From: Lophium mytilinum
Taxonomy: Eukaryota
DNA: 64,000 bases
Assembly (NCBI GenBank): GCA_010093605.1
Contig: MU004193.1
Coordinates: forward strand, 1 to 64,000
Reading direction: 5' to 3'
A model generated the notes under the pieces. The model saw nothing but the letters and a program-made list of their open reading frames with translations. It was not told where the DNA came from and did not search any database. Of this stretch, positions 1 to 64,000 are shown piece by piece (position 1 is the stretch's first letter; each line of letters begins with the position of its first letter). The position numbers and the translations under genes are program-made.

Positions 1-19
1 TTATAAAATTATTCTACTA

Positions 20-3450: not shown

Positions 3451-3762
3451 ATAATATTATATAGGTAGTAAAAAGGGGTTATATATATAGTACTAGCCTA
3501 TATATAATATAATTATCTTAATATATATATTAACTATAATAATTCTACTCTATATCTATATAGATATTATATTTATAAATAGTAAAGGTAGCTACTAGAT
3601 TTTAAGGTTTATATATTTTAGTATACTATAGACTAATAGGTGCGCATATAAGGTATCTAGACTACTAACTCTATTAAGTAATATACTTAATAGTAGCTTT
3701 AGTCTATATATAACTACCTTATACTCTACTATTTTATAATAATATAAAATGCGCTAAATATA

Positions 3763-4352
3763 AAGTATCTTCTTATTATTTATACGCGCGCATCTTTTTA
3801 GTAGTTATAGCTATTAGTAGTATAAAACTCTAATAGTTCTATATATAATATAACTCTATTAATATTTTTTTACTAATATCTTATCTTATTAATTATAACT
3901 ATTATCTATTATTCTTTTTATATATAGATAGTGCATTTAATATACTAGTATAGATTATACCTTTAGTATTATTTACATCTATCTCTTCTATTAAGGGATA
4001 CATATTCTAATTCTATAAAGATAGTAATTAGAACGCAGGCCCTATATACTAGTACGCCTAGTATCTTCTTATTATTTATGCGCATAAGTCTCTCTAGTAG
4101 TTATAGTTATTAGTAGTATAAAACTCTAATAGTTCTATATATAATATAACTCTATTAATATTTTTTTACTAATATCTTATCTTATTAATTATAACTATTA
4201 TCTATTATTCTTTTTATATATAGATAGTGTATTTAATATACTAGTATAGATTATACCTTTAGTATTATTTACATCTATCTCTTCTATTAAGGGATACGCA
4301 TTCTAATTCTATAAAGATAGTAATTAGAACGCAGGCCCTATACGCTAGTGCA
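3763..4352. repeat. Near-identical direct tandem duplication (2 x about 295 bp)
   Basis: About 3763-4055 and about 4060-4352 both run AGTATCTTCTTATTATTTAT...GTAATTAGAACGCAGGCCCTATA. Confidence 0.9.
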
Positions 4353-4599
4353 TCTACTAATAAAATAATTAAAATAGGCCTGCGTTTTAATTAATCTTAT
4401 ATATTAGCTTTTTTTCTTTATTAGTTTAATTTTATACTAGCCTATACTAATATATAAATAATTTACTATTATATCTTTTAACTAGTAATAATTAGAGTAT
4501 TTTAGTAAGAATTATAGTAGATCTAGACTAAAAGTAATATAAACTAATACTCTCTAGATAATAAAGCTTTAATATATACTTTAACTCTTTAAAATAAAG

Positions 4600-39244: not shown

Positions 39245-40318
39245 CTACACGGTGAAGCAGGCCTTAAAATTCAATAGCATTATTTGCGTAAAACTCCGCC
39301 CTTGCCACTGTCTCCATCGAATGCTCGCAACAATTTGCTCGATCTCCGCGTGGTTTTCTTTCCAGAAGTCGTAGAAACTGTCAGCCAATGGCACCTCCTT
39401 AGACTTGTACGCGCCGTGAACAGCGTCAAAGGTTTTCCAAATATTCTTCAGCACATTCTTATTTCTTAACGACACGGCAGATCCACGCCCTTGTCGTGAT
39501 ATGGGTGTTTTCTTTATCTTATTGGACGCTGTCTCGACGCCTCGAAGAATGCATGTCGTGATTGCATGCGGCGGGTCGGTCCGAGTCAGGGCTATTGCTT
39601 TGACGAGATTCGCTGAAGCTCGATCCATGAAACACTTGCCGTCTGTATATGCTTCCAGCTCCGCACCATAATCGAGGAGCATATTCACCAGTTTTGCAAG
39701 CTCAGCCATGTCGCCCTCTCTCATATCACGCCATGTTAGGTGATTCAACTCGTCGAATTTGACGATTGCTCCTTTCTGTATTAGCAGATCGATGAGCTTC
39801 GTACGTGGTACCACACTCCGCCCTTGGACCTCAAGCATCCAGCTCTCGTCCAGCGCATCCGACCTCGCCAACGCGCCATACTCAATCAACAAAGATGCTG
39901 TCTCGGGTTGGACATGAGCGAGGGCTATGTCGAGTGGGGATTTCTCTGGCCCTCCGTCCGAGTCCCGACATCGCAGATTTACATCTGCACCTTGTTCCAG
40001 GAGCTCCTGAATCAAATCCAGATAGTCACCGCCTCTTTGGTAGATAATTTGATGGAGGATTGGCCACCTGTTTAGGGTGTGATAGTCTAATAGACCAGGT
40101 GTCACCACTGTAACGTGATGTAACATGAGACACCGTAAATGCGGGAATTTGCGGCATTTGATGGCCCACGAGAGCTCTCCAATCGCACGCGCTGAAACGT
40201 CAACTTTCAGCAGGTCATGGTATCTGACGCTGGTTCTGCAGAACCTGCTTAGCGAGATACTGTCAAGGTCCTTCGCAATCTCGAAGATCAGCTCGTTGGG
40301 GAGTTTCCAGAACGGCAT
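39245..40318 (-). CDS. F-box-like + ankyrin-repeat protein, paralog 1
   Basis: N-terminal LPNELIFEIAKDLD...LSRF; ankyrin-like ELLEQGADVN, SPLDIAL, LLIEYGA, LLDYGAE. Confidence 0.85.
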   Translation of the reverse strand: MPFWKLPNELIFEIAKDLDSISLSRFCRTSVRYHDLLKVDVSARAIGELSWAIKCRKFPHLRCLMLHHVTVVTPGLLDYHTLNRWPILHQIIYQRGGDYLDLIQELLEQGADVNLRCRDSDGGPEKSPLDIALAHVQPETASLLIEYGALARSDALDESWMLEVQGRSVVPRTKLIDLLIQKGAIVKFDELNHLTWRDMREGDMAELAKLVNMLLDYGAELEAYTDGKCFMDRASANLVKAIALTRTDPPHAITTCILRGVETASNKIKKTPISRQGRGSAVSLRNKNVLKNIWKTFDAVHGAYKSKEVPLADSFYDFWKENHAEIEQIVASIRWRQWQGRSFTQIMLLNFKACFTV

Positions 40319-40945
40319 GATTATTTTCAACAGCTATGGACCAACTTTTATCGCGTTTCACTTCATCCAAGCTCTTCATAAGAACGAATCAAACCTAGGC
40401 ATAGAGAGTTTGTGGATCATTTCCAGGCGCGTGTCATGCGCCCATAGAACATGAGCAAACCACTTTTCGAAGGGTTTGGCAGGCTTCCAAGTCTTGGCAG
40501 GCAATCATGACCTTCATTTCAACTAGTTCTAGAGCCTTGTAGCATTCATTGGGCAGGATCTCGTGCAACCTCGTTCAGTCGGTCAAGACTCGGCGTGAGC
40601 ATCAGTTGTAGAATTAAGCGCTAATTCGCACTAGCAGCCTCGCCTAGAGCGGAGAGGTCACGTGCAATAAGCCAAGGGTATCGCCACTGTGCGCTTTGAT
40701 CGGCATCCCATCAGGGTACCACAGTCGCGTGAACGTGTACTCTTTGAATTGTATGATATGTTTCACTTTCAGGGGCAGAAAGGAGCTTCCTAGCTGGTTA
40801 ATACGATGCGAATTGAATTTGGGATTGCCTCTCAGGCCAACTCAAGTACCATCACACGAGTGGAAGCAGAATCACGTGGTAATTCGGTTTCTCTGCCTCT
40901 ATCTATGTCTCTGTTTATCTGCCTACTGGGTTCACGGGTCCAATA

Positions 40946-42169
40946 TCATAGAATACTGCAACAGCTTCCCGTGACTTCGGTTTTAACATCATCAATGATG
41001 ATTTCCTTCTTAACGGGCGTGAATCGCCTTAGTCGAAGAACAGTCTCAATCTCAGCATGATTTTCATTCCAGAACTTGCAGAAATCGTCGTCCATCGGGA
41101 CATGATTGGCCTCATACGCCTTGTGAATCGCTTTGAACAAATTCCATGGCGTTTCCAAAGCTGCCTCGTACGTGATGAAGCCCGGCCATCTGATTCCTCT
41201 TGGTTCCTTGTTCTCATCGTCCCAACCTTCCTGAACATACCTCAAGACGAACTTGGTGATTATATGCGGCGGACGCGCCAGGGCGATTGCTGTGAAGAAC
41301 TCTACGGTAGAATGCTGCAAGAAGTGCCGGCCGTAATGATCCCTTCGTTCCGGATCAGCACCATGCTCGATCAGAAAGGTGATCATATCAGCATTCTCTT
41401 CATGGCTTCGTGACCACGCTCCCTGCAATGCAACGCGTAAGACATTGACTGTCTCTCTAATCGACGTGGTGACGCAGTCATGCGGTTTGTTTCTGATGCC
41501 GTTTGGATCGGCTCCAAGCTGCAAGAGTTTGCGAATGAGCCGCATCTGATCCTGAAATGCGTCTGGCAAGGGTGGAAGATATTCCATGTCTTTACGCAAA
41601 ATAGCTCTACCAGTAACGGTTTTGATGAGATGCCTTGTGCGCGTTATGTAGAACGTGTCGGGTACGCTGTTCGGGGTGCCATACTCAATAAAGCAGCCCG
41701 ACTCGATCAGTAGCAGCGCTATCTTGAAATGTCCCTCTCTTATAGCCAGTGTCAGTGGTGGGCGAGTAAAGCTATACAGCCCCTTGTTAAGAAGCGTCGA
41801 CGTAGCTCCCGCATCTAGGAGCTGCCGAATGAGTGTAACATCTTCGTCACCTTTCTGGTGTATGACTTCGTTGAGGATTGGGAGTCTACGTGGAGAGTAA
41901 CACCCGTCAATGAGTTCTGGAGTGAGTCCATCAACGTTGTGAGCTAGAAGATGTCGTAGAGTTGGTATGCTTGGTTCCAGCAGAGCCCACCGAAGAGCGG
42001 TGATCTTTTCCCCATGATAGAGCCGGAGTGCATTCACGCGCTTGAAAAGATCGCTATCCAGAAGGTCGTGATATCTCCAGCTGACTCCAGACAGTCTACT
42101 TAGGGAAACATCGTCGAGATATTGACCGATCATAAGCACCAGCTCATTAGGTAGTGCCAGGAATGTCAT
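40946..42169 (-). CDS. F-box-like + ankyrin-repeat protein, paralog 2
   Basis: N-terminal LPNELVLMIGQYLDD..LSRL; ankyrin-like PPLTLAIREGH..IALLLIESG, LLQLGADPN, LIEHGADP. Shares the C-terminal F.A.H.AY....VP..D.F..FW.ENHAEIE with paralog 1. Confidence 0.87.
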   Translation of the reverse strand: MTFLALPNELVLMIGQYLDDVSLSRLSGVSWRYHDLLDSDLFKRVNALRLYHGEKITALRWALLEPSIPTLRHLLAHNVDGLTPELIDGCYSPRRLPILNEVIHQKGDEDVTLIRQLLDAGATSTLLNKGLYSFTRPPLTLAIREGHFKIALLLIESGCFIEYGTPNSVPDTFYITRTRHLIKTVTGRAILRKDMEYLPPLPDAFQDQMRLIRKLLQLGADPNGIRNKPHDCVTTSIRETVNVLRVALQGAWSRSHEENADMITFLIEHGADPERRDHYGRHFLQHSTVEFFTAIALARPPHIITKFVLRYVQEGWDDENKEPRGIRWPGFITYEAALETPWNLFKAIHKAYEANHVPMDDDFCKFWNENHAEIETVLRLRRFTPVKKEIIIDDVKTEVTGSCCSIL

Positions 42170-43772
42170 AACTCTAGTCGCAGATTTTTAGTACGATGTC
42201 ACGAATCTCTATATGCTTTTCCCTCACCGCTTATGGATATTTTCAGATACGTGAAGGGGCTGTCTTGTATGGACACCGCCGTCTCAGATTGCTCGGCGTC
42301 TTTATGGAGTGCGCAAACCGTTGAGCCTTTTTTTCAGTCAGGTTTCTGAGATTACAACGAAGCCTTACCCAGGTACTAAAGAATCGTTTTGCAGACCTAT
42401 GAAAACCCACGGGGCTTATCTGGTGATTTTTGGATGAAGCTGTTACAGGAAAAGAATAGAGATTGCTGGAAATCGACATCTTATAAGTGCACATAGTCAG
42501 GCTTGCTTTGACGGTTTTATTGGCATATGTATCATGTCACACGCCCATGAAGTGTCATCTTCTTCGCCCAAACGTGGGTATAGCAGAGTCGAGACTCATG
42601 ACCTTTGCTTGCAGTGTGCAAAAACGCATGCAATGTAAGACTAGCCAGGTGTTTGTGCAGGCTCTGGCCCTTCTGGCTCACTTGAAATGCTTCGTCATGG
42701 GGCCCCTAAACACGGCCCCCCCCGTAGAGGTAGGCTCAAACGATTGTTGGCGGTTGGATGCCTCTTCTTCCGTGATTATTGGGACCATTTTGATTAGAGG
42801 ATTCAGTGACCACCATTTTGCAAACATAGTGTGGCAATTGATACTTCGAAATATGCAGTCATATTCGTTGTCAACCATGATGGGGCGCCGGAGCCGCACA
42901 TAACGATCGGTGTTTCCCTAATGCGCAGCCATGATAATGAGAAGATTCTTGTGGACGCTAGGGAGATCGGCAGGAAGACGGTCGTCGAGCGATGGAAGAC
43001 TAGCATCTTCTTGTTTGTCGAATTTAATCTGTCCTATCTCCTTACTACACGTAGACTTAGGATCCTTTCGCTCAACGGTCTCCATTACCTCGCCGATGTC
43101 GAACCAATCAGCCATAACAGCTTGCCGCTATGGGATATCCGAATAGATAGTGAAGAGGCTGGGCAAGAGGCGATGCCGTTGATTTGAGTGAATGGTGGGT
43201 TAGCAGAATTCTAGACCCTGATTTCGCCAGAACGGAGTTCCGAGGTATGGCAGCCTTATCACCACGCAGAATTCGGATCTTCCGTAGTCTATTGCCTCAT
43301 TACTATTACGCTTTTCCAACGTTTCGTGGTCAGTGATAGCACTCCGCAACCTAAAGGAAGTAAACTCTTAGGTTTCTCACTTTCTTATAGGTACCGCACG
43401 ACGAGAATTGCTTTTGCATAGCCTAAAGCCAAGGGCTAGCGGATTTACTGCTAAAGTCAGCCTGCTAATTCAAAGATTTTAGAGCAACAGGGCTGGCTAT
43501 ATCGTCAGAAAACGGGAGGTCGCGGCAATTGAAAGTTACATTCACTAGCTGTACAGTAGATATATTTACAATTGCCTCCCACTGCTTAAAACCTTTGAAT
43601 GTGCTTTGACAAGCTTGAAAGACTTCATCTGTGTACACAGGTTTGCTACCTCCTAGGGTCTTTCAACGCATATTTACTACGTCAAACTTTCCCACTCCAA
43701 CACATTTTGTAAACCAAGCACTTTTCAACTTCACCTCCCCTCATGCCACCCCTCATAGCCGTTCTCATCCAT

Positions 43773-45191
43773 CTACAACCCCTTGACGATCTCGGGCAGC
43801 AGCTTCTCCGTAAACTGCCACAGCTTACTCGAATCCTGAGCATGCCACGCAGCGCCCGTCCAGAATGTCTTCTTCCCTCCTTGCAGCGCATACAGCTTCT
43901 TATAGAAACCACTCTTGAGTGCCTCAAGCGACACCGTGAACTCGAACGGTGAGTGGCTATGGAATATCACGAACTCAGGCGTCGTGGTATTCAGCGTTCC
44001 CGCAGTCTTGAGTCTCTCGACCGCCGCAATGATCGCAGCTTTGGCGTTGGCATCACCAATGGGAGCTGGCGTACAATACTTCACGGTGAAGAGGCCTGAC
44101 GTATCGGTAGACTGAACGAAATATGGACCAGGAAGGAAGGGAACGTTCCACGGGGTGTCCGCGCCGAAGTTGCGAACTTCAATGCCGTCGGGGATACCGG
44201 TGTTCTTGATGATGGAGGAGTAGTATCCGGCGTTCAGAAACTCGCTAAAGATGTCCCTCTCATTTAGGTCGAGGTCCCAGCCGGGCAAGTTCTCGAGCTT
44301 GGGCGGGATACTCGAGAGAAGTTTCTTAGCGATGATGAGTTTCTTCCCTGTGGGAGTCTGGACCTGAACCTTGACGCCGAGGGGAGAAGAGCGGTCGACG
44401 GAGAGGATGGTGGTGCTTAGAAGTGCTCTCTTGCCTAGTATTTTTTCGGCAGCTTCGTAGGGTGCTCGGTTATTGTGCGAAACGGTAGCTTGGTAGTTAT
44501 TTTCTTGCAGTGCTTTGATGCTGGCCAAGCTGACAAGTTTGAAGACGTAGAGGGTCAAATGATCTAGGAAAGGGCCCATTCCATTCCCGAAAATGTTGAG
44601 GATCTGGACAGCGCCTTCAATATTGTATTTCTTGACGAAGTCACCGAAAGGGATGAGTAGATCCTCCGGTATAGGATCCGGCAGGTCAAATGAGTCTTCG
44701 AGGTACGGGTACTTGGATATTTGCTCCACGTAGTTAATCAATCCTTGTGTGACATTCCCTGAGTAGATGCTTGTCACAGTCTTACCAGTACGGAAGTCAA
44801 CCGGGATGGTGGTGAGCGTCGTTGTGCCCGCGCGAGCGATATCGGTCTGTTGCAACTTCACCCCGAGTCGTTTGAAGTAATTTTGGACCACTGGGATGTC
44901 GTACCAGGCGACGACACCCATCTCGGTGTTGTTCCCAGACGCAGGATCAGTGTAGGTGTATGTGTGTCCTCCGAGATAGTCGTGGTGGTCCACAACGATG
45001 ACGCTCTTCCCCAAGTCGGTCAATCGAATCGCGCCATAAGTTCCACTTCCTCCTCCACCGAGAACGACCACGTCCGTCGTGATGATATCCGGGGGCCCGT
45101 ATCCATCTATGCTGGTAGTTCTCTCGGTCATTGCGGCGGTTGTTGCAGAAATTGCGCTGACTGCAGCAAATAAAAGTGAGGACACCCTCAT
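43773..45191 (-). CDS. Secreted flavin-containing amine oxidoreductase (CpaO/beta-cyclopiazonate dehydrogenase-like family)
   Basis: Signal-like MRVSSLLFAAVSAISA; FAD-binding DVVVLGGGGSGTYGA..LGGHT; C-terminal LYALQG...TFWTGAAW..DSS.LW. Confidence 0.9.
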   Translation of the reverse strand: MRVSSLLFAAVSAISATTAAMTERTTSIDGYGPPDIITTDVVVLGGGGSGTYGAIRLTDLGKSVIVVDHHDYLGGHTYTYTDPASGNNTEMGVVAWYDIPVVQNYFKRLGVKLQQTDIARAGTTTLTTIPVDFRTGKTVTSIYSGNVTQGLINYVEQISKYPYLEDSFDLPDPIPEDLLIPFGDFVKKYNIEGAVQILNIFGNGMGPFLDHLTLYVFKLVSLASIKALQENNYQATVSHNNRAPYEAAEKILGKRALLSTTILSVDRSSPLGVKVQVQTPTGKKLIIAKKLLSSIPPKLENLPGWDLDLNERDIFSEFLNAGYYSSIIKNTGIPDGIEVRNFGADTPWNVPFLPGPYFVQSTDTSGLFTVKYCTPAPIGDANAKAAIIAAVERLKTAGTLNTTTPEFVIFHSHSPFEFTVSLEALKSGFYKKLYALQGGKKTFWTGAAWHAQDSSKLWQFTEKLLPEIVKGL

Positions 45192-46435
45192 TTCAAAGGC
45201 GAACGGATTAAATGCGGATGTCTGGTAGAAGCAGAGCAAACTAGTGAGCTGAGGTACTTCTTCTACATCATTACGAACGGCTCATATATATATGGGTGAT
45301 TCCATGCCGACAAAATCTTGCCTGATGTGTTCTTCAAGCATATGAATTGCGCAAACAAAGGGGTGACCAATAGCAACCCCTGCTTCGGCCGGAACGACAC
45401 CAGCGGAACGACACCAGCCGAAGCAACATGCATAAATTCAGTCTTCATGGACCGCATGTACCTCCGACCAGACTTTCATGGTGTCCGGAAGAAGGGAGAC
45501 ACCTTGAAAGAGTCCCAAAATGCACGTTCCCCGCATGATCTGCACTGCAGGCCTTACCACGTGGGGGAGAGGTGCATGATGACGAGCTTTCATAGCCGTC
45601 CGGGTCCTAGGATTCTGCAAACTTTGACGGAAATCTGCTCTTCCATTCGGCTCGCGATGTTCCTGGAAGTCCGTAGGATCTCGGATCGGATGGGCTCGTA
45701 CGCGGGAATGATCCTCGACCGCATCTGAAGGGGTAAGATGTTGAGCTCAACATCTTCGCGTTCTAGCTGATACGCTTCTCGTCTTTGCTGCAATTTGCTA
45801 GTCTTTCGCTTTGGATCTCAATCCTATGCTCCCTTTCAATTAGGCCTCGAAGCATAGTATCTCAGCTTCAAGAGAGACTATGCAAACTAATTTTGGTTCG
45901 TAGAAGTTCAAGGAGCAAGTGCGCCATACCAAAAACATATAGCACCTCTGCAAATATCTCTGTGTAATACTATTGCTTGTTCTGTTCCATTCTAGCTACC
46001 GAGACCTATAGTGATGAGTGAGAGTGTAATTCTACTTACGCCCCTCCGTCCTCCGCCGGTGACTCCAGGCTATCGTGTCCACGAATATTGGGCGTTTGAT
46101 CTTGTCCGTATTGCTTTAAATTGGGCTAAGACACCCGTGATAGTGGCTGGGAATTATGCGGGAACCCTAACACCGACGACGTTTTACATATACTAAGAGA
46201 AAACCCCTCTGTCCTCTTTTTTCTTCGCCTAGGATTAGCGTCGCTACAGCGTGGGCAATAACCCGAGGCGGGCAGGTCTACAGTCGGATACTATCCCGTT
46301 TAGCTTAACAGGTTGGTTGGTGCTGCCTTAGCTCGCTGAAAAATCTTTGATAGGGTTTTTCGTACGCAGTTTATGCCCTCATATGCGATCTTACAACACC
46401 CTCCGGACCCCACAGTACCTACACGAAGTTGAGAG

Positions 46436-46927: not shown

Positions 46928-48729
46928 ATCGTGTCTTATATGCAACTATTCTCCCCGCATTTGCCACGGATACGATTTAGACATTAGGAGTCCTCAAAAT
47001 GCTCGTAATGACCGGTGGCTTTGCCAGTCGTTGAGTTGTTCGCGGTCAGGATAATCGGAGTCAGACGGAGTATACCGGAACGTCGCTTAAGAGCTGGGCT
47101 AGGGGGCTTAGTAGTCATCTTCGTAGCCGACATAGTTGCATTGCAGTCAATTAGGGGCTAGCTGTAAGAAGCGCAGTTGAGCGGTTATGTCGGAACCCCA
47201 TGGGGTGTGGAAACACGAGCTAATCACGTACCCCAGGACCAGCGTCGTCACCTTCCACATTGCGCGCAGCCCAATCGTCAACCCCCTGAACTCATGCAGA
47301 TAGCCATCCTACAGAGCTCGCACAATTTCTTGGCCCACTCTGTAAGCAAGATCATTCGAAAACAATGCCAAGCCTCCATTTTGCACCTTTTAGTGAAGAA
47401 GTTGGGACGCGGAACCACTCTGCCAGGGCGATGACCTTTAGTGACTGTTGAAAGGACACTGCACCCCCGCACACGCATCTGCGATTTTAGAGACTATGCA
47501 ACTGGCGCAAGATAGGAAAAAGTGACGTACTGGAGTGAGAGCGCAGCAAAGGATCCCAAACTATCAGCCACTTTACTCACAATACCAGGCTTGACAACAT
47601 CAGTTTTCAAAATACCTATCAAATCTATGTACGATGAAGAGCACAACAACTGTAGTTGCCAACTACTGCTGCCATCCTTCTCCGCTGCCTCTACTCCCCT
47701 CGTGCCCCCGATATAACCAATGCTCGCGCATGCCTACTGCCTTTCTATTCTTATGACAGGCTTGAAACATTACTAGGCCACCATAGATGATGACTTTCAG
47801 GTATACGCAGAAGAGATCTCATAGTTGCCCACCGCTTGAAAATCCTCGCTCGCTTTCCACCTCCGCCTCCGTGACGATCACGGTCCAAAGGCCAACTCAC
47901 CTGGACATCTTGATACCCCCCTCCTTCGAGAGATCCGCGAATAATCACGCGTAATGCCCATACGCAATTCCAAGGCTAGGCACGCGAGTTTAGCGACATT
48001 AACTCCCCAAGCCTTGCCACTTACGTTATCGACATGCTCTCCAGGGCCACCGCCTCGAAGAATCTCCTTCAAGAAAACAGCGCCTCAAAGAGACACTGAC
48101 CGGAAGTACATATAGCGGCGACAACGAGTAGGGACAACGCGACACCGCCCGATTTGGTGTATAACGCGGACGCGCGCTATCGTATGAGTACGAGGATATG
48201 CGCCAGCTCTTCCAAGACTCCGAGAAAATCTCCGTGAGTAAGCAGAAAGATGCCGCGGCTTTGCTCTATGCATTTCCTGTGCTGCTATAGTAACTGTCAG
48301 ACTAGGTATTGACAATGTGATACGAAGCGAAGGGCTGCAAAAAACCGAGAGATCACGATATTACCAGAAATATTTTGGCGTAGGAGGTGATACGGGAGTG
48401 TCATGTGTCTAGCACGTGGATATCCAGTCACAAGCTTATCAGCCCCATCATAGGTCGGGAACTGCGGGACTTCCGAGCTTTACGGAAACCCATTAAAGCG
48501 CCTCGACTGTCCCGGGCCTCATATTCACGCGTCCTAGATAGATTCTCAATCCATCGGAATTCGAGAGCATCTTCCTACTCTACGCCAGCTTCTCCTCGAA
48601 CGCGAGATGATATTAAAGCCTATCTTTCCACTGCTTCGTGTCCATCGTAGGCAAAGTAATACACCTGACTAACTAACCTCCTCTCTGAAGTGAGCCAAGC
48701 GCTGTCTAGGTGCTTTTGAAATTCGCCTT

Positions 48730-51700
48730 TTATCGCCACCTTGCTCTTAAATAGGTTATTGAGTCCTCCCAGCTGTCTCTCATTTCCTTTGTCGTAAACC
48801 ATAGTGAGAAGTCTCCGCTGCTGACAATGAAATAAAGCGGGCAGTTTCTTTCTAGGTTCAGAACAAGCTTCCAGGCTCCGGGACCTATTGCACCCGCTAT
48901 TAGATACGGCAGCAATGGTAGAGAATTAGGGAAAGCCATGCATACTCGGCGCTTTAAGCTCATTACGTCTGATAACAGAGATGTGCTGAAGCTGTATCCT
49001 CATTTTCACAACGAAAACTTGTGGAGGCCCACGTCCTTCTGTAAGCAAGAGCACTTGGTTGTTAAGAAACATGGTATACTATGCGACGGAAATTGCGTAT
49101 TAGCCTCTTGACATCACGAAAACCTGCATCGGTAACATACCACGGGCTGCGATCTAATGGCGAGAACGGCTTGTTCTACAGGATTAAGACTGAGTCTGGT
49201 AAGTCCTTGGCGAAGCACAGGCCCAAAGGTATCAGCATCACCAGGTCCGCCATGCACTTCCATGAAAACAGGATTTTTCATTGGCCGAAAGGCGTTTGCT
49301 AGAACGTCCGTCCATTTCTGGGAAAATACTGTCCTCGATGAAAGAGCCTTTTAGAAATTTCAAATTAGTAAAAGAAGTTACGAAAAGAAGGATCTTACTT
49401 TGGCGATCTTTCCATATTCTAGCATACGGTGTACGGGAGAAACAATGAGAGTCTTCAAGCTGGGAGAATCCGTTGAAGAGCTGACGTGTTGCTGTTTATG
49501 ATCTGCTGCAGCGATTTCGAAACTATCGGCAATATATGGCAGACTGCGTGCGTACGATATAACAGCTTGAACTTGATCCTCATTAGGCACAAGTAGATCA
49601 AACCAATGTTCGGCATTGGTATCAAAAAGAAACATTTCTTCGACTTCGATCAAGAATCGTTGGTGAAATTCCAAGATAGTGGTCAGGTCTATCAGAATCG
49701 AGGACGAGGCATCTTTTGTTACCAAATGTCGCGAAACTGCCGTGTGTGCGATTTCGCTGAGCACCTCTAGGTTACAGACGTAAAGGCGTTCTGATTCCAC
49801 GAAGTTGCTGATAATAGCGTTCAAACTAGGATTGGGGTTTTTCACAGCAAGTGGTAATGGGAGATCTTCCCAGGTGATGTCTTCAATGGACGGATTCGCC
49901 TTTCCGCTATTCCAGAGTAGGCAAAGAATACGGTTCAGACCTTTGATGACCTATTGCACCTGTTAGGTCATCCCTTGATGCACGTCAAGAAGCTTCTACG
50001 AAGAATATTCCGTCGTGCCAGCAGTATGTCCTCAGGGTTACCACTCACCTTGACAAAGCCCATGATACTATCCTCGTATAAGTCTCTTGACGTGAAACAT
50101 TCGGCAGCCGGGACATGTAGATACCGAAAGCAAGTTCTCAAGAAGAGAGCAGATGCAGCTCGCGACTGTGCGGCATCCACGACGGAAAATGGGGCAAAAC
50201 CAGGGATATCGAATAGAAGTAGCAAGGGTACACCTCGCCTCAAAAAACGCCACAGTACGTCGACAGCATTCTTTTTTCGAGAGTAAGAAAGAGACTTATG
50301 TGCGTCTTGGTCCATCCATTGACGGCATCTCTCTTCGCCGCGGAAGATTGATTGAAGTCTGCGACACTCTTTGAGGAGCGAGAAGGGGGGCTGAGAGGAA
50401 GATTCAGCGACATGCTCCATTTTATCACGTTGCGGGTCTAGTTTGTCCGAGAATGCAACATCTGCTGCGAAAGCATCCGGACCAGCACCGGGTGCACAGC
50501 ATGAGGATACAGCTCTGTAACAAGACACGAGCTCTTCAGAAGTAGGTCGATGATGTGGTTCGGAATCAATCATTGAAACAATTTGGCTCAGAAATGGTTG
50601 GAGTTCGAGAAAATGAGGGTCTACTGTATTGAGATCTATGACCTCATGGAGCCAGAGAGCCACGGTGGGGATATTAGCTTGGTAACATCTCCAAGGTTGA
50701 TCTTCGTTAGACTGGATAATGGCCATGAGATCTTCCCTTTTAGAATCTCGGCCTGATGCAGCCAACACTCCAAGCATCTCTACAAAAACACAACCGAGAG
50801 AAAATATGTCGGTGCTTAGCCCCCGTTTACGATCAACTTCAGGTGCCGCATACATCCTCGTGAACGAGGTGCGGGAGTCAGTTTCGGCCTCAGCGGCATT
50901 CCTGTAAGAACGAGTGATGCCAAAGTCTGCAATATATACTTTGTACGAGAGCTCGTTCGGGGATGCGTGACTTTGCCAGATGGTCTTGACAAGCAAGTTT
51001 TTCGGTTTTATGTCCATATGCTTAGTGGCCTTTTGGTGGAGGAAGTTCAGTGCATGAGCAAGACAACCAAAGAACTTCGTCAAGGCGTGGAGCTTTGCGT
51101 CGTTCTCGTAGTCCGGAGAACCTGCTAGCCCGAGCGGTCGGGTAATGATTGACTCCATGAAGCCCTCAAGGTTATCTTCGGCTGCTGGATACAACAGTAT
51201 GCTCAGGTTTTGTTTGAAAATGTACGTTCCAACTACTCGGATTATATGAGAGTGCTCAACTCGTTTCAGATGCTTGACTTCTTTGATAGCTTCGGAGCGT
51301 TTCATACGACGGTTGAAGATGGTTTTGCGGGCTAACAAGATACGTCGACATTTCACACTTTCAACAAGGGCAGTCGCAGATGTGCCAAGGACACTCTCAG
51401 GAACAAGGAGTTCGTCGATCCGTGATTTCTCGCCAGGGCCGAATTCAGCGTGTTCGCCCCGACCAGACCAATCCTTCTCCAACAAGGGCTCAGGTATTAG
51501 TCGCTCGGAATCTAACAGCTTATGCCACGAACTCCTGCAAAAGTCCATCAGTGCGGACCACTTCGATATGAAAATATCATCACGTACGTTGAGGCCGTGG
51601 AGTTGCCATTGAGCTTTCGAGACCCCGACAGCGCTGTTCGAAAGGTATCAATGCTCTTGATGCTGCCTCGGATACTTCTGGCAGTGAAGAAGGTCGAGAC

Positions 51701-51886
51701 GCTCACTCTCCGACTCATCGCGACGTCATTTGCGTCTGGCGCAGGATTGACTGGAACGTCTACATCTGGGACGGGAACGTCGACATCCGGGAAAAGAGCG
51801 ACAATACTCTTCTCCAATGTCGCTATCATCCCATCCTGCTGTCCTTCTTCCCACAGCGGTTCAAGGCTAGTGTGTCCTTCGGCCAT
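48730..51886 (-). CDS. Ser/Thr protein kinase fused to degenerate Cdc24-like CH-DH(RhoGEF)-PH module (6 exons, about 947 aa)
   Basis: Exons 51886-51588, 51534-50049, 49950-49399, 49347-49141, 49078-48946 and 48896-48730 join in frame through GT-AG introns. Kinase motifs ARK, HMDIKPKN, ADFG, YAAPE, DIFSLG. CH: LWRFLRRGVPL..CFTSRDLY...GFVKVI. DH: FVESERLYVCNLE..FHQRFL..PVHRMLEY. PH end: F.TKEMRDSW. Confidence 0.85.
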
Positions 51887-52894
51887 GTGTCCTGCGTAAA
51901 CAGTCGGGAGCGGGAGGTAAGAAGTTCATGGACCGAGTCGATGTCTGAGGCTGAGTGGAGGGCGCAGAGCGCAGGGCTTCGGGGAGCGCGTATTGATGTG
52001 TGAATGATGAAGTTGAGGGCTTACAGCTAGAGAGCCTTGTTCAGTAAGATCTGGCAGACAGAGGGAAGTGGGAACAAACTGGCACAAACTGGCGGCTTCG
52101 TGGCTTCATCAATCAATCGGCGATGGAAGGCTGAAGGGCATATTGCGACATTGAGGATGAAGCAACACTCTCGAGGCATCGAAAACCCTAAAATGGATCT
52201 GAAGACACAGGTTCATCTTGGCGAGCGAGGCTGAACGAGGAGCTGAAAGCTGTGGGGGCCTGAGTGGTTGGTGTTGAAGCCTGGAATTGGTGGCTTTGCG
52301 TGGGGTGTTTGACGTGGAAAATTATGACGGGTCACGGGACACAGTCCCCGATGTTGCTAATCAGAGGCGCTGAATGCAGTCGAGCAAGTGTTATATTACT
52401 ACTATTTCCTCTCAGTAATACATTATGATCAATATTTGTTGGAGTATTGACGTCTGTAGGCCAGTTGAGCAGACAGTTGTCACGTGATCCCACTGACCTC
52501 ACCTCCGTCTCCCCATCTTCTGTGCAGTACCCCTGAATTCTTAAGTGTCAAGATGATACATCCATTAGAGTGCAGTATAAGCTCGGTAAATCATTTTGCT
52601 CTTATAAACGTTCCCAATCGTCATACCATTCACTACTATAATCACCCTGCACGTTCTTTTGCACTTATTACGTTCAAAGCTAGGTATACTGTTGAGTTCA
52701 AAGCTTTTGATACAAGAACGGTATAACGAGCCGAGATATTGGAAGTATTAGGGCTAAATCCCCATTCATTACGGTGATTTGGGGGCCCGCCCAGCGCTTT
52801 GCCCCCAACAGAATGAGTAACCCCGCCGACGCCTCCGACATTAGAAGTGACCAGGGTTTTTACTAGAGCTCTATTCTAGATCTATTGTAACGGC

Positions 52895-53793
52895 ATGACA
52901 CCTACACATCGTCGTCTAGCAGGCCCTGCAGGCCACATATGGGGGCCAAAATCGCGGGGTAGTCAGTCTATCATCAGGTTTAATACCCGCCGCGGCCCTT
53001 GCTGCCTCAGCCTCGCGCAGCATGCCCAGCCTCACAATTCGGGCCTATTGTCGGCCTCATCTTCCCTGCGAGCGCGGTCTATCGACTACTGGACCCTACC
53101 AGGATGGTTTCTTGGGGACGTTGACATCGATCGCATTCCATTCTTCTCTTATGACGGCAGATACCGGGAAGATTACGGACCCACCATGATAGGCGCGCTC
53201 CCTTTGGGTGACCTGACCCTTGAGATTGTGCAGTTTGGGCTGTTCACTATTGCCGTTGGCCATGTTTGTAATCGCAACATGTTGGTAAGCTATGTCTTAG
53301 ACTGAACCGCGAAGCATAAAGACACTTTTCTCCACACCTAGCTCCTTACGCTCTTTGCCGTTTCGCCCTTAATAATGTTTCTGTTTTTCATAACTTCCGA
53401 CTTGAATTGGATATGGCTATTAGGCATGTATGCATTCACAGTCATACTTGCCTTCTCGCTAGGGTTTCTGTTCGCTCCTACTCCCCGTCTTCTATGCCCG
53501 ACGTATGATTACCTCATTAGATGCCTGTCGCAAGGCTTCAAAAACGTCCACAAGTCATGTTTCTTCATGCCGTGTGTGCCGCAGTCAACGCCGGGGTAGC
53601 ATCAGGCGTACAATTTTATGGTGAGGTTGTTGTTACTTTTTGGCATCGAGATGCCCCAGTGATGATAAAGCGGAGGAAGGAATTGAGGAAATTTGAAGAA
53701 ACCTTGCGTCAGAAGACTGACGATGGAATGAGCAGGAGAAGACTCGTGGAAGTGGAAACACAGAGTATGGATGTTACGAGCGTGAGACCTTAA
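52895..53793 (+). CDS. Hypothetical membrane protein (exon structure only partly resolved)
   Basis: An in-frame intron at 53285-53341 joins two ORFs with hydrophobic segments. The second junction and the start are uncertain. Confidence 0.35.
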
Positions 53794-55980
53794 CCATTAA
53801 AAGGTGGTGATGTAGAGATGGGGAGTTTACTACAACATGGCGATGAGCCGGATGCACCGTTGGAACTTGCCACGCCGGAGCGAGCGACACTGAACGATGC
53901 AATTGCGGCCTCCAAGGAGGAATTTCGGACTTTCGAATACAAGGATATGGATGCACGTGTAGACAGCCGGAGACGTAGATCCAGGATGTCTGGTGGCAAA
54001 TCTGGGACGGCTGTAGGAGATGTTGGTAAGATTAGACACAAAAACCATAGAATCTTAGTTCGCCCATCTGGTTGCCAGGAAAGGTATTGTCAACGATTTG
54101 AGGAAACTTTCTTTCGTCGACGAAACATGATCTTGCTCTCTATACATCCGTGTGGAGAGATGCTTGAGGAACGCCCAGTCTGTATCGGTTCACTTCGACA
54201 ACTTCATACGGACGTTCCTCTACTAATCACAGATTAGTATTTTCGTCTGCATCAACGTCCTAGCCCGAATCCGGGGTGCTTGTTCGTACTGCTAGACCTC
54301 TGGCTGCCTCTTTCGATGGCGAAAGCCGTAGCTTTGTCCATCAAGTCATGATCGCAAGCTCTCTATATGTATGCAGCACGTCGTTCTTTACACAGTTCCT
54401 TTACTAACACTTGCAACCACACTCACCAGATGCCCCTTCTTTTACCACTTACGGCAAAGCGCTCATTCCAAGTCTTACATATAAGGCAATCCATCCAGAT
54501 ATTGAGCATTATGCGAGCTTGACCAAGTTCAGCTTATATCGCTACGCAAGCGCTCAAAAGACCACAGCTCTCCCACAAACGGCATCGCCCGCACTGGCTG
54601 CTATGCCATCAGGGCCGGTGAGCTGCGAGCTTCCGCAACCGCGTACGGTCTTGAGGTTTTAAGCCTGGGGCACAACCCGCAGTTTTCGACCCCACGCTCG
54701 GTGAGGTCACGCTATCAGTCCTCTTTCAGTTTGTTGACGAGCTGGCAGGCTGAGGATGAGGAACAAGGGGGTTAGATTGAATCGTGGACGTGCCAGGAGT
54801 CTGTAGGCCTTGAAAAGCTGGACTGCTTAGCACGCGTAGCGGCTGTCATGTCATGCAAGGCGAATGCAACAGCATGGACTAGTATTCAAGTTTATGCACA
54901 ATGGGATACTGACCTACGCTTCCTCCAGCCGGAGTTTTGGTTATGCTGGGTTGGGTGGAGGCCTCAGTTGGGCCTGTCAGCTCGTTCCAGGTTCAATCGC
55001 AAGGACTGTTGCTGCCACTTTCATCCGGAACATTCCTCAGATAAGTTCGCACGCAAGGCCTAGACTCGTTCGAACACGAACGGATAAACCTAGCAGCCGG
55101 TTACGCCGTCCTGACTCTATAAGTTCAGAAATATTTGGCTGCGGTGCACCTTTTCCTGAATGCGGTGAGTCTACACGACTGACCCCGGACGCATGGACCC
55201 ACACGTCCAAGAGGGGATGCTTGCGGTACATCAGGTCCTCAGGGGTTGTACCTTGAGGATATCATGGTCCAATAGGCTGCAGGATGAACTGGTTCCGGGG
55301 TTTCGGGTCATTTTTGCGATATTAAGCCTCCGCGACCCGAAACATTAGAGTTATTGCAATGAGTTGGAAGCTATATAATAACTGAGAAAGGATATATCAT
55401 TAGATTTATCAAGAAATGGTAACAGAAGGTGAAGAGACTGCGGACTGATTATTCCAGTCTTCTACGCTAGCTTTGCTCCTACCGACTACCCTCTTCCCTA
55501 AACGCAGCGCCCTCTACACGCGCGCTCAAACACTCGTACAGCAGAACATAGAAGAGATTCATGCCAGTCCTGAATAGCAAGATCACATCCCGACAGAAAG
55601 CATGAGATATTGACTCTTTATAGGGCTCGTTAGGCAAAGTGCTCGGATAAACTACCTTAGCAAGGATCCGGAAGCATGATATGCCCCAGGTTCAATCGCT
55701 CGGGTAAACTATGCTACCATGAACCCGGGTCCAATCATATTTCCGATTTCAAGTCCGAAATGGAAATATTCCAGTCACCACATCCAAGACTACGGATTCA
55801 GCATGGGTGTCCAGGCATGCGGGTTGGTCTCATGCACAACGGATGGGCTCCTGGGTGCTGGGTGCGGGGAAGCTATGGGAATATGGGGTACCGGGAAATC
55901 CTTTATATAGGCAATGTCCTCCAGGTTCGGTCATGATGTTCACACTCTACTGGTGATCGCTTTAAGTTATTCTGCACGCA

Positions 55981-58017
55981 ATGTCGGACAACAACTTTTC
56001 GAAGTATGAGAAGCCTCAGAAGTCTCATCATGAAGAGCAACCCTCGGGACATGTCGCATATCAGTCCGATACCGAAGGCCCTCGGGATCTAGACGATCCA
56101 GAGTGGCATCTCGATTACAAGATAGTTCTCACTTTCCTCGTAGGACTCCTTAACAGCTATGAAGCTCGACCCGTACTGACTTACATAATCTAGATCATGA
56201 TGATCCAGTACAATGCCTCCTACTTCACGCTTACCTTGTCCGCACCAATTGCCAGCTATATCAACGCAGATCTGGGACCGAAGCCTTATTACGTGTGGAT
56301 GGAAATCGTTTGGCCTCTTGCATTTGCTGCTACCATGGCCATCGATGGACGTCTCGGCGATCTCTTTGGCCGTCGCTGGTTGATGATCGGCGGAAACTTT
56401 CTTTGCGTGGTTGCCTCGATTATTGGAGGGACAGCGCAATCAATCGGCGTTGTCATTCTTGCCATCGGTCTTAATGGTATGGCCGGAGCTATCCAGCAAA
56501 CGGCTAGTGCTGCTGTCAGTGAGCTTGTCCCTAGGAAATATCGACCGCAAGCCGCATCTACAGTTGCAGGCAGTGGAATCATTGGAGGTGCCTTTGGTAC
56601 CCCGATTGGTATGCGTCCATCATTTTGCTTTGCCTTTTGGCGCTTTGAGGAATTGCGCTGACTGACCTGAAAGCTATCCATCTTGCTACTAAGCTTTCCT
56701 GGCGATGGGGTTTCTGGATCTCCCTCTTGACTGCAGGCATAAGTGTAATCGGTTTAGTTTGCTTCTACTTTCCTCCAACCTTTGAGGAGGTCCATAACGA
56801 GGACCGTCGTACAAAGTGGCAAGAGGTTAAAGATTTCGATTTCGTTGGTGTGATACTTTTCATCGGCGGCATCACTGTTTTGCTTCTAGGCATCTCTTGG
56901 GGAGGTGTCACCTATCCTTGGAAGAGTGCTGGAGTTCTTGTACCTCTATTCATCGGCGCATTGGCTCTCGTCGCATTTGGATTCTGGGAGGTTTACGGAA
57001 ACCTCAGCGAACCTCTTGTGCCATACAAGCTTTTCAAGAACGTCCGGGGCTTTACCATGGTACTGGTAGCCGATTTCGTTGGGGGGATGCTTCTCTACGC
57101 GTTGATTTCCCTCTATCCTGTTCAAATCGCGACTGTCTACGAGTCGAATCCTGCGGTTGCCGCGTGGGAGTCTTGCACTCTCCTGATGGGGACTTTTGTT
57201 AGTATTATCGTGATGGGGAACCTTCTAGGGAGAGTCGGCCACGCTAGACTGATCTTTGCGGTTTCTGTCGCCCTGAACACCATATTCTTGGGATGTATGG
57301 CGGCGATGAGTGAGTACCTCAAACGCAGACGACTTTCTACAACTCATTACTGACATCCCCATCAAGCACCCTCAACGCTCGGAGCAATCCTTGCACTAAC
57401 CACGCTTACCGGGTTCACCATCGGTTTTGTTCAGCTTGTGGGCATTGTAATGATCATGCTGAACTGCCCCGACGAAGACATTGGAGTTGCAGTTGGTCTG
57501 AATGGTTCCGCTCGGAGTATCGGTGGTTCGATTGCAACCGCCATGTACAGCACAATTCTCACCAACAAGGTCCAGGAAGTTCTACCTGGAAATATCGCAG
57601 CTGCGGTACTGCCACTAGGATTTCCGGCAAGCAGCCTCGGGCCTTTGATTTTAGCTCTTTTGAGCGGATCTAAAGCAGCAATCGAGCAAGTGCCTGGCGT
57701 CACGTTACCCGTCGTGGGTGCGGCAGCTCAAGCAGTGAAGGAGTCTTACGCTCAAGGATTCAGGTAACTTACAACCAAAAGCTCAGTGCCAAAGAGCATA
57801 ATGGAATGCTAACAAAAGTAGACTTGTGTATCTTGTTGCCATCGCATTCGGTGTCGTTGCTACAGTCTGTGCCGCATGCACCAGAGACATCGACCACCTG
57901 TTGACCAACGACGTAGCAGCAAAACTGCATGCGCCAGAACTGCAGCCGCTCCATCGGAACACCGTCAACAGCTCTGATGCTGATGTGGAAGCGTCAAGTC
58001 ATGTCGAGAAAACTTAG
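55981..58017 (+). CDS. MFS drug efflux transporter, Tri12 (fungal trichothecene efflux pump)-like family (about 4 introns)
   Basis: Motifs GRLGDLFGRRW, SELVPRKYR, FYFPPTF, GISWGG..YPWKS, DIGVAVGL.GSARSIGG, A...SYA.GFR.VYLVAIAFG. Confidence 0.92.
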
Positions 58018-61658: not shown

Positions 61659-64000
61659 CCTCTTCTTCTAGATCTAATTTACCATTAAATTACGTTTATA
61701 ATAGTACGTCGCGCTTACAGCTTTACGCTATGCGCCATTAGCATGTTAGGCTATTAGCTTCTTTAGAAGCTTTAAAGCTTCCAGGGGCATATAATACTAT
61801 AAGAGGTGCGTTAGCAGGCGGTAATATTACAGTAATATGCCTAAGAGGGGTTTAGAATTCTTTAGAGGCCTACTACTACGTTAGTAGGGGGGATAATAAA
61901 GGTATTAGGATATTTAATAGCTTAATAGTAAGGAAGAATTAGAAGAGATTATAAAGTGTTTATAATAGAGGGAATTATAAGGTAATATAAATATTAGCAT
62001 GCTGGCGCATATTAGGTTCTAATGCGCAATTAGAGCTATAATAGCTAATAATAGGCTTATTAGAGGTCTTATAAAGTCCCTTATAATCTAGTAAGAAGCT
62101 TATAATCTTGTATAGGTCTAAGAAGCTGTTAGTATATTACAGAGCAGTAAGTAGTAATCTAGAAGTAATAGATTTAAGAATCTAAAGTATATATAAGGCC
62201 TTCTTAACGCTCTTACACTCTTTCTTCTATACTTAACTTTCTTCTTTAAGGTTTAAGCTTCTTTTAGCTTTAAAGGTTTATTAAAGACTCTTATAGCTTC
62301 TCTTCTTATTACTATTATCTTTTCTTTATTAATTCTTTTATTAGGACTCTCTCTCTCTTAGCTTCTAGGCTGCTTCTCCTTACTCCAAGTCAGCGTTATA
62401 ACGTTGCTTAATACCTAGCCAGGTTCTATAGCCTCTAGCTTACTCTATAGAAGAGGTAGAGATAATAGAGATAATAATCCTTTAGACCCTAGCTATAGTT
62501 GCAAGGTTCCGCGCTCTTATAAATTCTTAGGCATCTTAGCTTATAAAGCCTTATAGGCCTATAGTAAGTTCCTAATAATAGTTTAGCTCTTTCTCTTAAT
62601 AAAGCTAATAAGATCTAGTTACTATTATGCTTATATTAATTATCAACCTTTTAATAGTCTAGAGGTTCTATAATCTATACTATACATAGCTAATAGCCTT
62701 TAATAACTCTATCCCACTTCCTTAAGCCTTCCAACGCTACGCTATAGCTTCTAATTATTTAAACTACACTAAATACCCCCTAAAGTTTAAAGGTAGTAGT
62801 AGAGCTTAAAGAAATATACTGCTTTAAGGGTTCCTTAGTAATATTAGGGATAATAAACTAATTTTAAATAAGAACTATAGCTATAATTCGCGCTTTATAG
62901 GGCTTCTTAAATAGTATTTAGGCTTAAGAGTAGATTATAGTAAGAATTCTAGGGCTCCTCCTGCCTTTAGGGCCTGCAACTACTACCTAAGAATGTTCTT
63001 AGGAGGCTGTTAGTTTAGTAAATATATTTAAGCTCGCAATCTAGATAGTTCTCCTCTCTACTAAGGATCCTGTGTGGAATATTATTAGTAGGGCAGTAAG
63101 GAGACTTATTTATTCTAAGGTAAGTTTAGCTTTACTTTTAGAGTGTCTTAGAACTTAGCTAACACCTATTATAGAAGGATAGACTCTAATAGCTTATTAG
63201 AAGACTACTAGGGCTCGCGTTTAATAAGGTCGCTATAATATTACTAAGTTTATATCTTCTCTTTATAATTAAGAATCCCTTAAGAACCTAGCTAAGAATA
63301 TAGTACGCTTAGCCTTAGCTATATAGCTGCTAATAGAATTAATTTAAAGAAAGACTACTATACTACTACGTAATCTAGGTATTCCTTATACTCCTAAATC
63401 TCTAACAGCTTAATATCGCCTATAGGGCTCTAGTAGTGCTTCTACTTAGGCTTCTAGTTTAAGATCTAGCTTCTAGTAATTATCCGCAGCTATATCGGGT
63501 TTAGGAAATATAGCTACTTTAGGTTCTAGCACTTAAGGTCTAAGGTAATACTCCCTAATCTTTCCTACTTAGCCTTTAACTTCTCTAACTTCTTTAACCT
63601 CTTATTATTCTCCTTTAGGTTCTCTATAGCGCTCCCGAGAGCCTACTTCTAATATACTATTAAGCCGCCGCTTATCCTAGTTATCTATTAGTAACAATAA
63701 CAACTCTACTAGAGAGACCCCTCTAAACTCTACTTAGTATTAGATGGGCTCTCTAAATGCTATTCTCTAAAAGAATAGGGCTAGTAAGCATAGCTAAAAT
63801 ATATTAACTTAGAGCGCGCCTCCAAAACAGCCTTAGAAGAATAATAATAGCTATTCTAGTAGTAGTAGTAGCTATAAAAGTCCTAGTAGAAGGAGTTCTA
63901 GTAGTAGAATAGCTACCTAGAAGAACTAAGAGTGTGTCGGCTTAGCTAGTATTAATGGAAAAGCGTTAATTTTCCCTCCCCTTCTAGATATAAGAAGGAT
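61500..64000. other. RIP-mutated block, probably a relic gene or transposon of unrecognised type
   Basis: TpA excess, CpA/TpG depletion, no ORF of 60 aa or more. No diagnostic transposase or recombinase motif was recognised. Confidence 0.85.

Follow-up and report, generated by a model that had tools for sequence, protein, structure and literature searches.

The first 64,000 nucleotides of contig MU004193.1 from the fungus Lophium mytilinum (assembly GCA_010093605.1), referred to here as the window, carry on the minus strand what looks like a protein kinase joined to the exchange-factor module of Cdc24. The locus raises the question of whether this is truly one gene, where its second half came from, and what such a half could do behind a kinase. 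The main activator of Cdc42 in the polarity of fungi is Cdc24, regarded as one conserved protein that carries no kinase. The fusion gene, from a Dothideomycete of the order Mytilinidiales, is real and expressed and has six exons, and its C-terminal half is, judged by its domains and by phylogeny, a descendant of Cdc24. The reading favoured here, with a probability of roughly 0.55, is that the product would be an apparently active kinase bearing a Cdc24-derived pseudo-GEF, i.e., a guanine-nucleotide exchange factor (GEF) without catalysis, as a binding or regulatory module.

The evidence for a single gene comes from the reading frame and from a transcript. The original prediction, made from the letters of the window, joined six exons in frame; this arrangement is confirmed by script and by a transcript contig, while its estimate of about 947 amino acids gives way to an actual length of 943 (Table 1). 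The five introns within the coding region are all of the GT-AG type, measure 53, 98, 51, 62, and 61 nucleotides, and contain branch-site-like motifs. A contig of 3424 letters from one public sequencing run, X1, shows no mismatch to the window, omits exactly the five coding introns and one further intron in the 5′ untranslated region (UTR), and extends beyond the stop codon. A contig lacking six canonical introns is best taken as spliced mRNA, so that all junctions are confirmed and the exons for the DH and PH domains are covered. The intron predicted at 50048–49951 is skipped exactly, and the transcript does not end before the DH exon but passes through it, the PH exons, and the stop codon. 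The contig was used for its exact intron skips, contigs carrying no information on expression level, and its start near 48365 was inferred from the position of its letter 36 at window position 48400, with the last piece ending at 52166.

An open reading frame (ORF) of 559 codons (49968–51647) covers the kinase plus the bulk of CH and is flanked by shorter frames, consistent with the earlier remark that the ORF list splits this gene. Two neighbouring genes are ruled out as an explanation, given that one ORF covers kinase and CH and one transcript contig covers every exon. The N-terminal region encoded by exon 1 holds a motif, STF.TARS.R..TF.TA, that is conserved among relatives. The intron in the 5′ UTR and a short upstream ORF may point to translational control.

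The protein is already public, under an automatic name, with a shortened model and precomputed Pfam hits, and its existence is not new. P0193, the NCBI entry "kinase-like protein [Lophium mytilinum]" of 788 amino acids, matches it over exon 2 with 100% identity. P0193 equals the 943-residue model over residues 1–779 and then ends, just past exon 3; exons 4–6 (window 48730–49398), and with them the PH-derived region, are therefore missing from the database protein, though the contig splices those exons in. The present analysis thus corrects a shortened public gene model.

An intact non-RD kinase had been proposed for the N-terminal half, and this is borne out by the motifs and by Pfam (Pkinase, E 3.2e-27). 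The β3 lysine motif LARK and the HMDIKPKN, DFG, and APE motifs are all present. Among 133 kinase relatives examined, HMD is found in 131, DFG in 130, and APE in 126. The HMDIKPKN loop as such is common to 131 of the 133, so the non-RD trait is a property of a large family and not peculiar to this gene. LARK and a loop of the form LG.S...[LIV]V occur together in 16 of the 17 listed fused or CH-bearing relatives, the seventeenth, P0013, being cut at its N terminus, and every one of those that cover the glycine-rich loop has it in degenerate form. Searched against PDB sequences, the kinase finds generic matches only, the best being CDK2 (43.9 bits), with ULK1 also listed; no characterised kinase family can be named from these matches to solved structures. 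From sequence, the window kinase is apparently active.

The C-terminal half was scanned with Pfam exon by exon (cut-offs 21.3 bits for CDC24 CH and 27.6 bits for RhoGEF) and with profiles built from 23 canonical Cdc24 proteins. CH and DH both exceed the Pfam cut-offs, and the canonical profiles match the window protein at 46.9 bits for CH and 58.7 bits for DH. An AlphaFold2 model of exon 3 alone, the DH exon, is an all-helical bundle (predicted local distance difference test 74.1, predicted template modelling score 0.66). Nearly all of its best-ranked Foldseek matches are DH domains, among them those of Dbs, intersectin, FGD6, Vav1, Kalirin, and P-Rex1, with TMq values of 0.44–0.58 and a best E-value of only 0.036, and phmmer of the same exon against PDB sequences gives no match at E ≤ 0.01.

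The PH domain is the most diverged of the three. The per-exon Pfam scan finds no PH family in the window protein, and the canonical Cdc24 PH profile reaches 1.4 bits, which is not significant when 1000 shuffles of the region reach 8.0 bits. A profile made from the corresponding regions of the remaining fused proteins matches residues 844–942 at 26.1 bits (E 4.3e-10), several fused relatives match Pfam PH_10 directly at up to 78.4 bits, and the alignment allows PH to be traced strand by strand, together with the tryptophan-bearing C-terminal helix. The PH is, on this alignment, present by descent; it is recognisable only via the fused relatives and not claimable from general profiles. The predicted CH–DH–PH order therefore stands for CH and DH by Pfam and for PH only by way of the fused relatives' profile. 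The absence of a PB1 tail, also predicted, agrees with the lack of any match to a profile of canonical Cdc24 C termini and of any PB1 remnant downstream of the gene by tblastn.

The same architecture is found in other fungal genes. Among 27 matches in longer proteins, seven combine a kinase with CDC24 CH and/or RhoGEF: P0001 from Mytilinidion resinicola, P0013 from Glonium stellatum, and P0002–P0006. Ten of 120 listed matches of similar length also hold Cdc24-derived domains, including a second Lophium paralogue, P0058. A search with P0013 against 1.84 billion representatives was followed by a domain scan of the 41 top matches, which comprise 35 kinase-less proteins of the Cdc24 type, two with a kinase and parts of Cdc24, and four kinases alone; the best non-kinase matches of P0013 are canonical CH–DH–PH–PB1 proteins. 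Twenty proteins were looked up by name (19 kinase-less matches and P0058), and five of them are Dothideomycete Cdc24 proteins, from Neofusicoccum, Coniosporium, Piedraia, Elsinoe, and Trichodelitschia. Others are the Leotiomycete "BcCDC24" and Cdc24 proteins from Saitoella, Ustilago, Rhodotorula, Funneliformis, Coemansia, and Calcarisporiella. The fused genes that could be named are all from Mytilinidiales and Gloniales.

Two of the nine fused proteins scanned retain a PB1 of the Cdc24 type, P0013 (49.3 bits) and P0006 (47.0 bits); P0005 gives a borderline result, and none is seen in the remaining six. An apparent orthologue of the window gene, P0196 from Mytilinidion resinicola, is 73% identical over residues 14–381, is annotated at 441 amino acids, and ends inside the kinase domain; either its model is shortened or the gene is decaying.

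The origin of the fusion was approached with two independent trees. In the tree of the CH–DH–PH region (32 rows, 466 columns, LG+C20), all nine fused modules fall with seven named Dothideomycete Cdc24 proteins in one clade (support 85/97), nested in turn within a clade at 100/100 to which the Leotiomycete Cdc24 and three further Cdc24-like rows also belong. The end branch of the window row is 1.91 against a median of 0.41, and a warning of long-branch attraction applies. Long-branch artefacts usually draw rows toward the base of a tree, and the nested position of the fused modules would, if anything, be conservative. The kinase tree (49 rows, 323 columns, careful search, rooted on HET-associated kinases) places all 13 fused kinases and four short proteins in one clade at 100/100, with the window kinase sister to Mytilinidion P0196 (99/95).

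Taken with the PB1 domains of P0013 and P0006, the two trees suggest that a complete Cdc24 was duplicated once, that the copy was fused once in a common ancestor, and that PB1 was lost later in some branches, including that of the window gene. The ancestor would have lived in the Mytilinidiales/Gloniales lineage, and the duplicated protein, with CH–DH–PH and originally PB1, would have been joined there to the kinase. The original prediction had spoken of a captured, diverged Cdc24 copy. Its descent from Cdc24 is upheld by the domain order and by the nesting among Dothideomycete Cdc24 proteins; for the capture, a single old duplication and fusion common to a small clade fits better than a recent event in this genome.

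The rate of evolution is two to three times higher in the Cdc24 half than in the kinase half. Between the window protein and six relatives, identity is 57–69% in the pre-kinase motif and 52–69% in the kinase, and falls to 24–38% in CH, 16–26% in DH, and 21–24% in PH. Close pairs follow suit: P0002 and P0004 share 94% of the kinase, 88% of DH, and 77% of PH, and P0006 and P0013 share 85%, 67%, and 55%, respectively. Across the 23 canonical Cdc24 proteins, 96 columns reach a conservation of 90% or more. Of these, the window protein retains 40, the Mytilinidion paralogue 36, P0058 29, and P0013 and P0006 63 each, compared with 92–96 in the canonical rows. The description of the copy as degenerate is thus apt, and it extends to the classical catalytic positions.

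Four such positions were compared. The glutamate of conserved region 1 (CR1), present in 23 of 23 canonical proteins, is asparagine in the window; the CR3 glutamine (23 of 23) is histidine; the CR3 lysine (22 of 23) is glutamate; and the column of the helix-6 asparagine (22 of 23) is a gap. None of the nine fused rows keeps all four together. The helix-6 asparagine survives in one of them only, P0058, and the CR1 glutamate with the CR3 glutamine in three (P0002, P0003, P0004). Between CR3 and the first strand of PH, the window protein is some 19 residues shorter than canonical Cdc24, with a reduced second half of helix 6, in a part of the alignment that is uncertain.

The importance of these residues is known from other exchange factors. 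The double mutant E56A/N238A of P-Rex1 is described in passages of PMC4601503 as the standard GEF-dead form. When the canonical Cdc24 P0176 is aligned to the P-Rex1 DH–PH region, the glutamate of its LNEIL and the asparagine of its INE lie 182 residues apart, the spacing of E56 to N238. Reckel et al. (PMC5727386) report that a CR1 glutamate and a CR3 lysine are important in catalysis; they find that the DH of Bcr, which is without the conserved residues, has no detectable activity and term it a pseudo-GEF. Tiam1 Q1191A/K1195A is given in an excerpt of PMC2989435 as unable to activate Rac. CR2, to which a passage of PMC2892021 assigns the stabilisation of the helical bundle, is comparatively well kept in the window (LEFHQRFLIEVE versus DFQRRFLI.vE), as are the core motifs of CH. 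A core that is kept and GTPase-contact elements that are lost form the pattern that a pseudo-GEF would show. Under the definition excerpted from PMC5727386 (DH fold kept, key catalytic residues lost), the window protein would qualify as one.

The favoured reading would have the DH domain no longer catalysing nucleotide exchange. The CH–DH–PH module would be a non-catalytic platform, as proposed for Bcr, that docks the kinase onto partners in the polarity machinery or else regulates the kinase within the same molecule, with the kinase as the output. The PB1 domain of Cdc24 binds Bem1. The clades that keep PB1 may still reach partners of the Bem1 type (the Cdc24–Bem1 binding is stated in a passage of PMC7051960).

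Several points weigh against this reading. Run X1 is the sole public run that contains the stretch, and its label, "RNA?", is a guess. In the kinase, the glycine-rich loop LGTSATALV keeps only the first glycine of GxGxxG, and with a loop so degenerate the activity of the kinase is itself only a prediction. The loss of exchange activity is likewise read from sequence alone, and the positions used have uncertainties of their own: alignment in helix 6 is insecure, an asparagine of the window (in KNP) lying six columns upstream of the canonical asparagine column, and Tiam1 Q1191 and K1195 were assigned to Q and K in the CR3 motif QRxxKY from motif spacing only. The glutamate and glutamine kept in P0002, P0003, and P0004 point to a stepwise loss, and some members of the family could keep weak activity. 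In the best module tree the fused modules do form one group, but with a support of only 67/65 and on long branches.

Comparison with known systems helps to place the fusion. Canonical Cdc24/Scd1 has the same domain order and the same Pfam families (PF06395 for CH and PF00621 for DH, with PH_10 in fused relatives). It differs in that none of the 35 scanned kinase-less Cdc24-like proteins carries the N-terminal kinase of the window protein, which in turn has no PB1, has its catalytic positions replaced, and shows domain scores two to four times lower. Trio and Kalirin are animal Dbl-family GEFs with DH–PH and a C-terminal kinase in one chain, and their DH domains are among the Foldseek fold matches of the window DH exon. 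Unlike the window protein, they have an active DH, the order DH–PH then kinase, a kinase of another group, and no Cdc24-type CH, and the fusion event is not homologous. Bcr and Bcr-Abl p210 come closer in that a DH–PH tandem and a kinase share one polypeptide, the catalytic residues are missing, and the tandem is proposed to act structurally or as a scaffold (PMC5727386). Obscurin similarly has a DH–PH pseudo-GEF inside a kinase-bearing protein (PMC10118190). Both belong to an unrelated lineage with an unrelated type of kinase, whereas the window module is Cdc24-derived, includes CH, and lies C-terminal to its kinase. Inactivity was measured for Bcr and obscurin and is predicted for the window DH.

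Proteins with a kinase and a dead DH–PH are thus known in animals, and what is new here is a fungal variant with an origin traceable to the polarity GEF itself. Searches of article full texts turned up no published kinase–Cdc24 fusion or Cdc24-derived pseudo-GEF. Term look-ups in PMC9815663 and PMC2838846 returned no mention of RhoGEF or Cdc24, and the PB1 survey of PMC7051960 lists Cdc24 only as DH–PH–PB1. The lineage described here is one where an apparent second copy of Cdc24 joined a kinase, lost catalytic residues, dropped PB1 in some branches, and stayed kept and expressed. It would be a natural case of an exchange factor become a pseudo-enzyme domain, with a datable origin and living intermediates with and without PB1. 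It should also provide a handle on binding by the non-catalytic surfaces of Cdc24 (CH, PH, and the DH scaffold).

On the kinase side, the window protein is a member of a Dothideomycete "HMD" kinase-like family, entered in NCBI as uncharacterised "kinase-like protein". The family is large, with 403 kinase-family proteins at E ≤ 1e-40 among the candidates scored, and the window kinase is 40–50% identical to most of 120 listed paralogues from Pleosporales, Mytilinidiales, Gloniales, and others. Most members differ from the window protein in having no Cdc24-derived domains, which were found in only 7 of the 27 and 10 of the 120 matches listed. Elsewhere in the family the kinase is paired with ankyrin repeats, C2H2 fingers, a Spa2-homology domain, or no recognisable domain, and HET appears in more distant kinases. 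P0211 from Glonium stellatum and P0282 are HMD-family kinases with an N-terminal Spa2-homology domain (PF08518, 51.0 and 31.8 bits), Spa2 being another module from a polarity protein. Other HMD paralogues have C2H2 fingers or long ankyrin arrays. In P0007 and P0009 a Rad4 DNA-repair protein is joined to a kinase of this family; these may be merged models of neighbouring genes and not true fusions.

Other explanations have to be set against this background. The module could, as the original prediction had proposed, be a sensor of Rho GTPases or an integrated decoy, with a dead Cdc24 copy serving as bait for effectors or toxins that might target the real Cdc24, and with binding or modification of the bait causing the non-RD kinase to signal defence or non-self. 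This is rather unlikely. It would account for a module that is enzymatically degraded yet in frame and fast-evolving, and for a kinase family much expanded in Dothideomycetes (the 403 proteins above) with varied partner domains. Non-RD kinases are said to associate with innate immune signalling across kingdoms (PMC8463890), and the bacterial effector kinase SteC is reported to bind Cdc24 in yeast (PMC3496616). Plant integrated-decoy and kinase-fusion immune proteins offer an analogy only, in that an output domain is joined to a dead copy of a housekeeping signalling protein; the window gene lacks their nucleotide-binding oligomerisation domain, is not tied to defence by genetics or expression, and is not homologous to them. 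The Pfam scan of the six exons and P0193 gives only Pkinase, CDC24, and RhoGEF, with no NACHT, NB-ARC, HET, HeLo, patatin, or other immune or cell-death domain. Relaxed constraint explains the fast evolution no less well than an arms race does, the fusion is ancient and common to two orders and not variable, and nothing unusual is encoded nearby (oxidoreductase, transporter, exonuclease, F-box/ankyrin). Degradation is strongest on the GTPase-contacting surfaces, and literature searches turned up nothing on kinases as fungal immune outputs of such a kind. If the decoy were real, it would represent fungal surveillance without nucleotide-binding leucine-rich-repeat receptors (NLRs). A wider version, in which the whole HMD family would be kinase-fusion sentinels, each with an inactivated bait from polarity or GTPase signalling (dead Cdc24 here, the Spa2-homology domain or ankyrin repeats elsewhere), is decidedly unlikely; if true, such a family would read effector or toxin tampering with the polarity machinery as a kinase signal, as an NLR-free fungal counterpart of plant kinase-fusion and integrated-decoy immunity.

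The two remaining alternatives are both very improbable and differ in how much function they leave to the module. At one end, it could be a still-active GEF with unusual catalytic residues, a second, kinase-coupled exchange factor for Cdc42, Rac, or another Rho GTPase, in which the kinase would regulate the GEF or phosphorylate what the GTPase recruits. The CH and RhoGEF scores above the Pfam cut-offs and the predicted DH fold agree with this, as do a second CR1 glutamate (the TE motif) and a CR3 arginine, both kept in the window and in nine of nine and six of nine fused rows overall, respectively, and the catalytic glutamate and glutamine of three of the nine. Animal proteins with DH–PH and a kinase also exist (Trio and Kalirin). 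Obscurin is a further one (PMC10118190). Set against this are the N, H, E, and gap of the window at four positions on which 22–23 of 23 canonical Cdc24 proteins agree, a helix 6 shorter by about 19 residues, the GEF-dead P-Rex1 double mutant (excerpted from PMC4601503) and the inactive Bcr (part of PMC5727386), and RhoGEF scores of 32–56 bits in the fused family compared with mostly 83–146 in canonical Cdc24. At the other end, the tail could be a decaying appendage, a relic whose frame has stayed open through chance or weak selection on folding, so that the kinase alone would matter. The family does show progressive reduction: PB1 is present in only two of the nine scanned proteins, CH gives no match in P0058 nor PH_10 in P0001 or P0003, the Mytilinidion orthologue P0196 is annotated at just 441 amino acids, four short module-less proteins sit inside the fused kinase clade, and the PH of the window is beneath detection by general profiles. 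Yet about 440 codons over four exons are still open and correctly spliced, and the 40 of 96 conserved positions that survive include core motifs of CH, CR1, CR2, and the PH helix though the module is only 16–38% identical among relatives. The module is present in every full-length member in two orders, and the short proteins may be shortened gene calls like the window's own public model.

Table 1. The kinase–Cdc24 fusion gene, its transcript, and the genes around it in the window
Feature	Position	Strand	Remarks
Kinase–Cdc24 fusion gene	51886-48730	-	6 exons; 2832 nt joined in frame by script, i.e., 943 codons plus TAA stop
Spliced transcript contig, extent	48365..52166	-	5′ UTR with one intron, coding region, ~365 nt of 3′ UTR
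5′ UTR intron, 53 nt	52027..52079	-	Contig jumps 52026->52080; GT..AG on the minus strand (CT..AC on +)
Upstream ORF, 20 codons	51867..51929	-	Frame other than the main one; overlaps the main ATG; read by eye from the sequence
Exon 1	51588..51886	-	ATG at 51886; amino acids 1-99 plus two bases; P0193 begins at the identical ATG
Intron 1	51535-51587	-	Confirmed by the transcript contig
Exon 2	50049..51534	-	Pre-kinase motif, kinase domain, linker, bulk of CH
Intron 2	49951-50048	-	Confirmed by the transcript contig
Exon 3	49399..49950	-	End of CH, linker, DH through CR3
Exon 4	49141..49347	-	End of DH and start of PH-derived region; missing from P0193
Exon 5	48946..49078	-	PH-derived region, middle part
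Exon 6	48730..48884	-	End of PH-derived region: C-terminal helix with conserved Trp; TAA stop
Protein kinase domain, non-RD, amino acids 150-436	50526..51386	-	Pfam Pkinase E 3.2e-27 (per exon), 9.3e-27 in P0193
Cdc24-type CH domain, amino acids 521-607	49915..50273	-	Across intron 2; PF06395 29.9 bits per exon, 38.6 bits in P0193
DH (RhoGEF) domain, amino acids 641-791	49312..49815	-	Across intron 3; PF00621 41.8 bits
PH-derived region, amino acids ~804-943	48733..49275	-	Across introns 4 and 5; profile of fused relatives' PH regions
Exonuclease-like gene	36310-37350	+	
Ankyrin-repeat gene	39245-40333	-	Adjoins the F-box/ankyrin gene; the pair (39245-42187) lies 7-9 kb downstream of the fusion gene
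F-box/ankyrin gene	40946-42187	-	
Flavin oxidoreductase	43773-45281	-	
TRI12-type MFS transporter	56194-57767	+	

The neighbours in the table, from the exonuclease-like gene to the transporter of the major facilitator superfamily (MFS), are those within 15 kb of the fusion gene, and farther left lie genes for a dihydroxyacetone kinase, a transketolase, a short-chain dehydrogenase, a sugar transporter, and a fungal transcription factor. No link to a gene cluster or a known incompatibility locus is seen among the neighbours in the window, and tblastn finds no other kinase or Cdc24-like sequence, nor a second paralogue, within it.

A series of plus-strand ORFs without a Pfam match (52880–55256) starts about 700 nucleotides from the 5′ end of the fusion transcript and probably belongs to a divergently transcribed gene. 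At 28261–30237, also on the plus strand, ORFs of 180, 213, and 263 codons lie in one frame with single stop codons between them and no Pfam match; this may be a pseudogene, or the stops may lie within introns. The long ORFs at 25008–26477 and 32511–34010 have no family match either. Both ends of the window are AT-rich, with a GC fraction of 0.22–0.30 over positions 1–6000 and of 0.34 over 62001–64000 compared with about 0.5 elsewhere, and look like the repeat-mutated AT-rich blocks of many Dothideomycete genomes.

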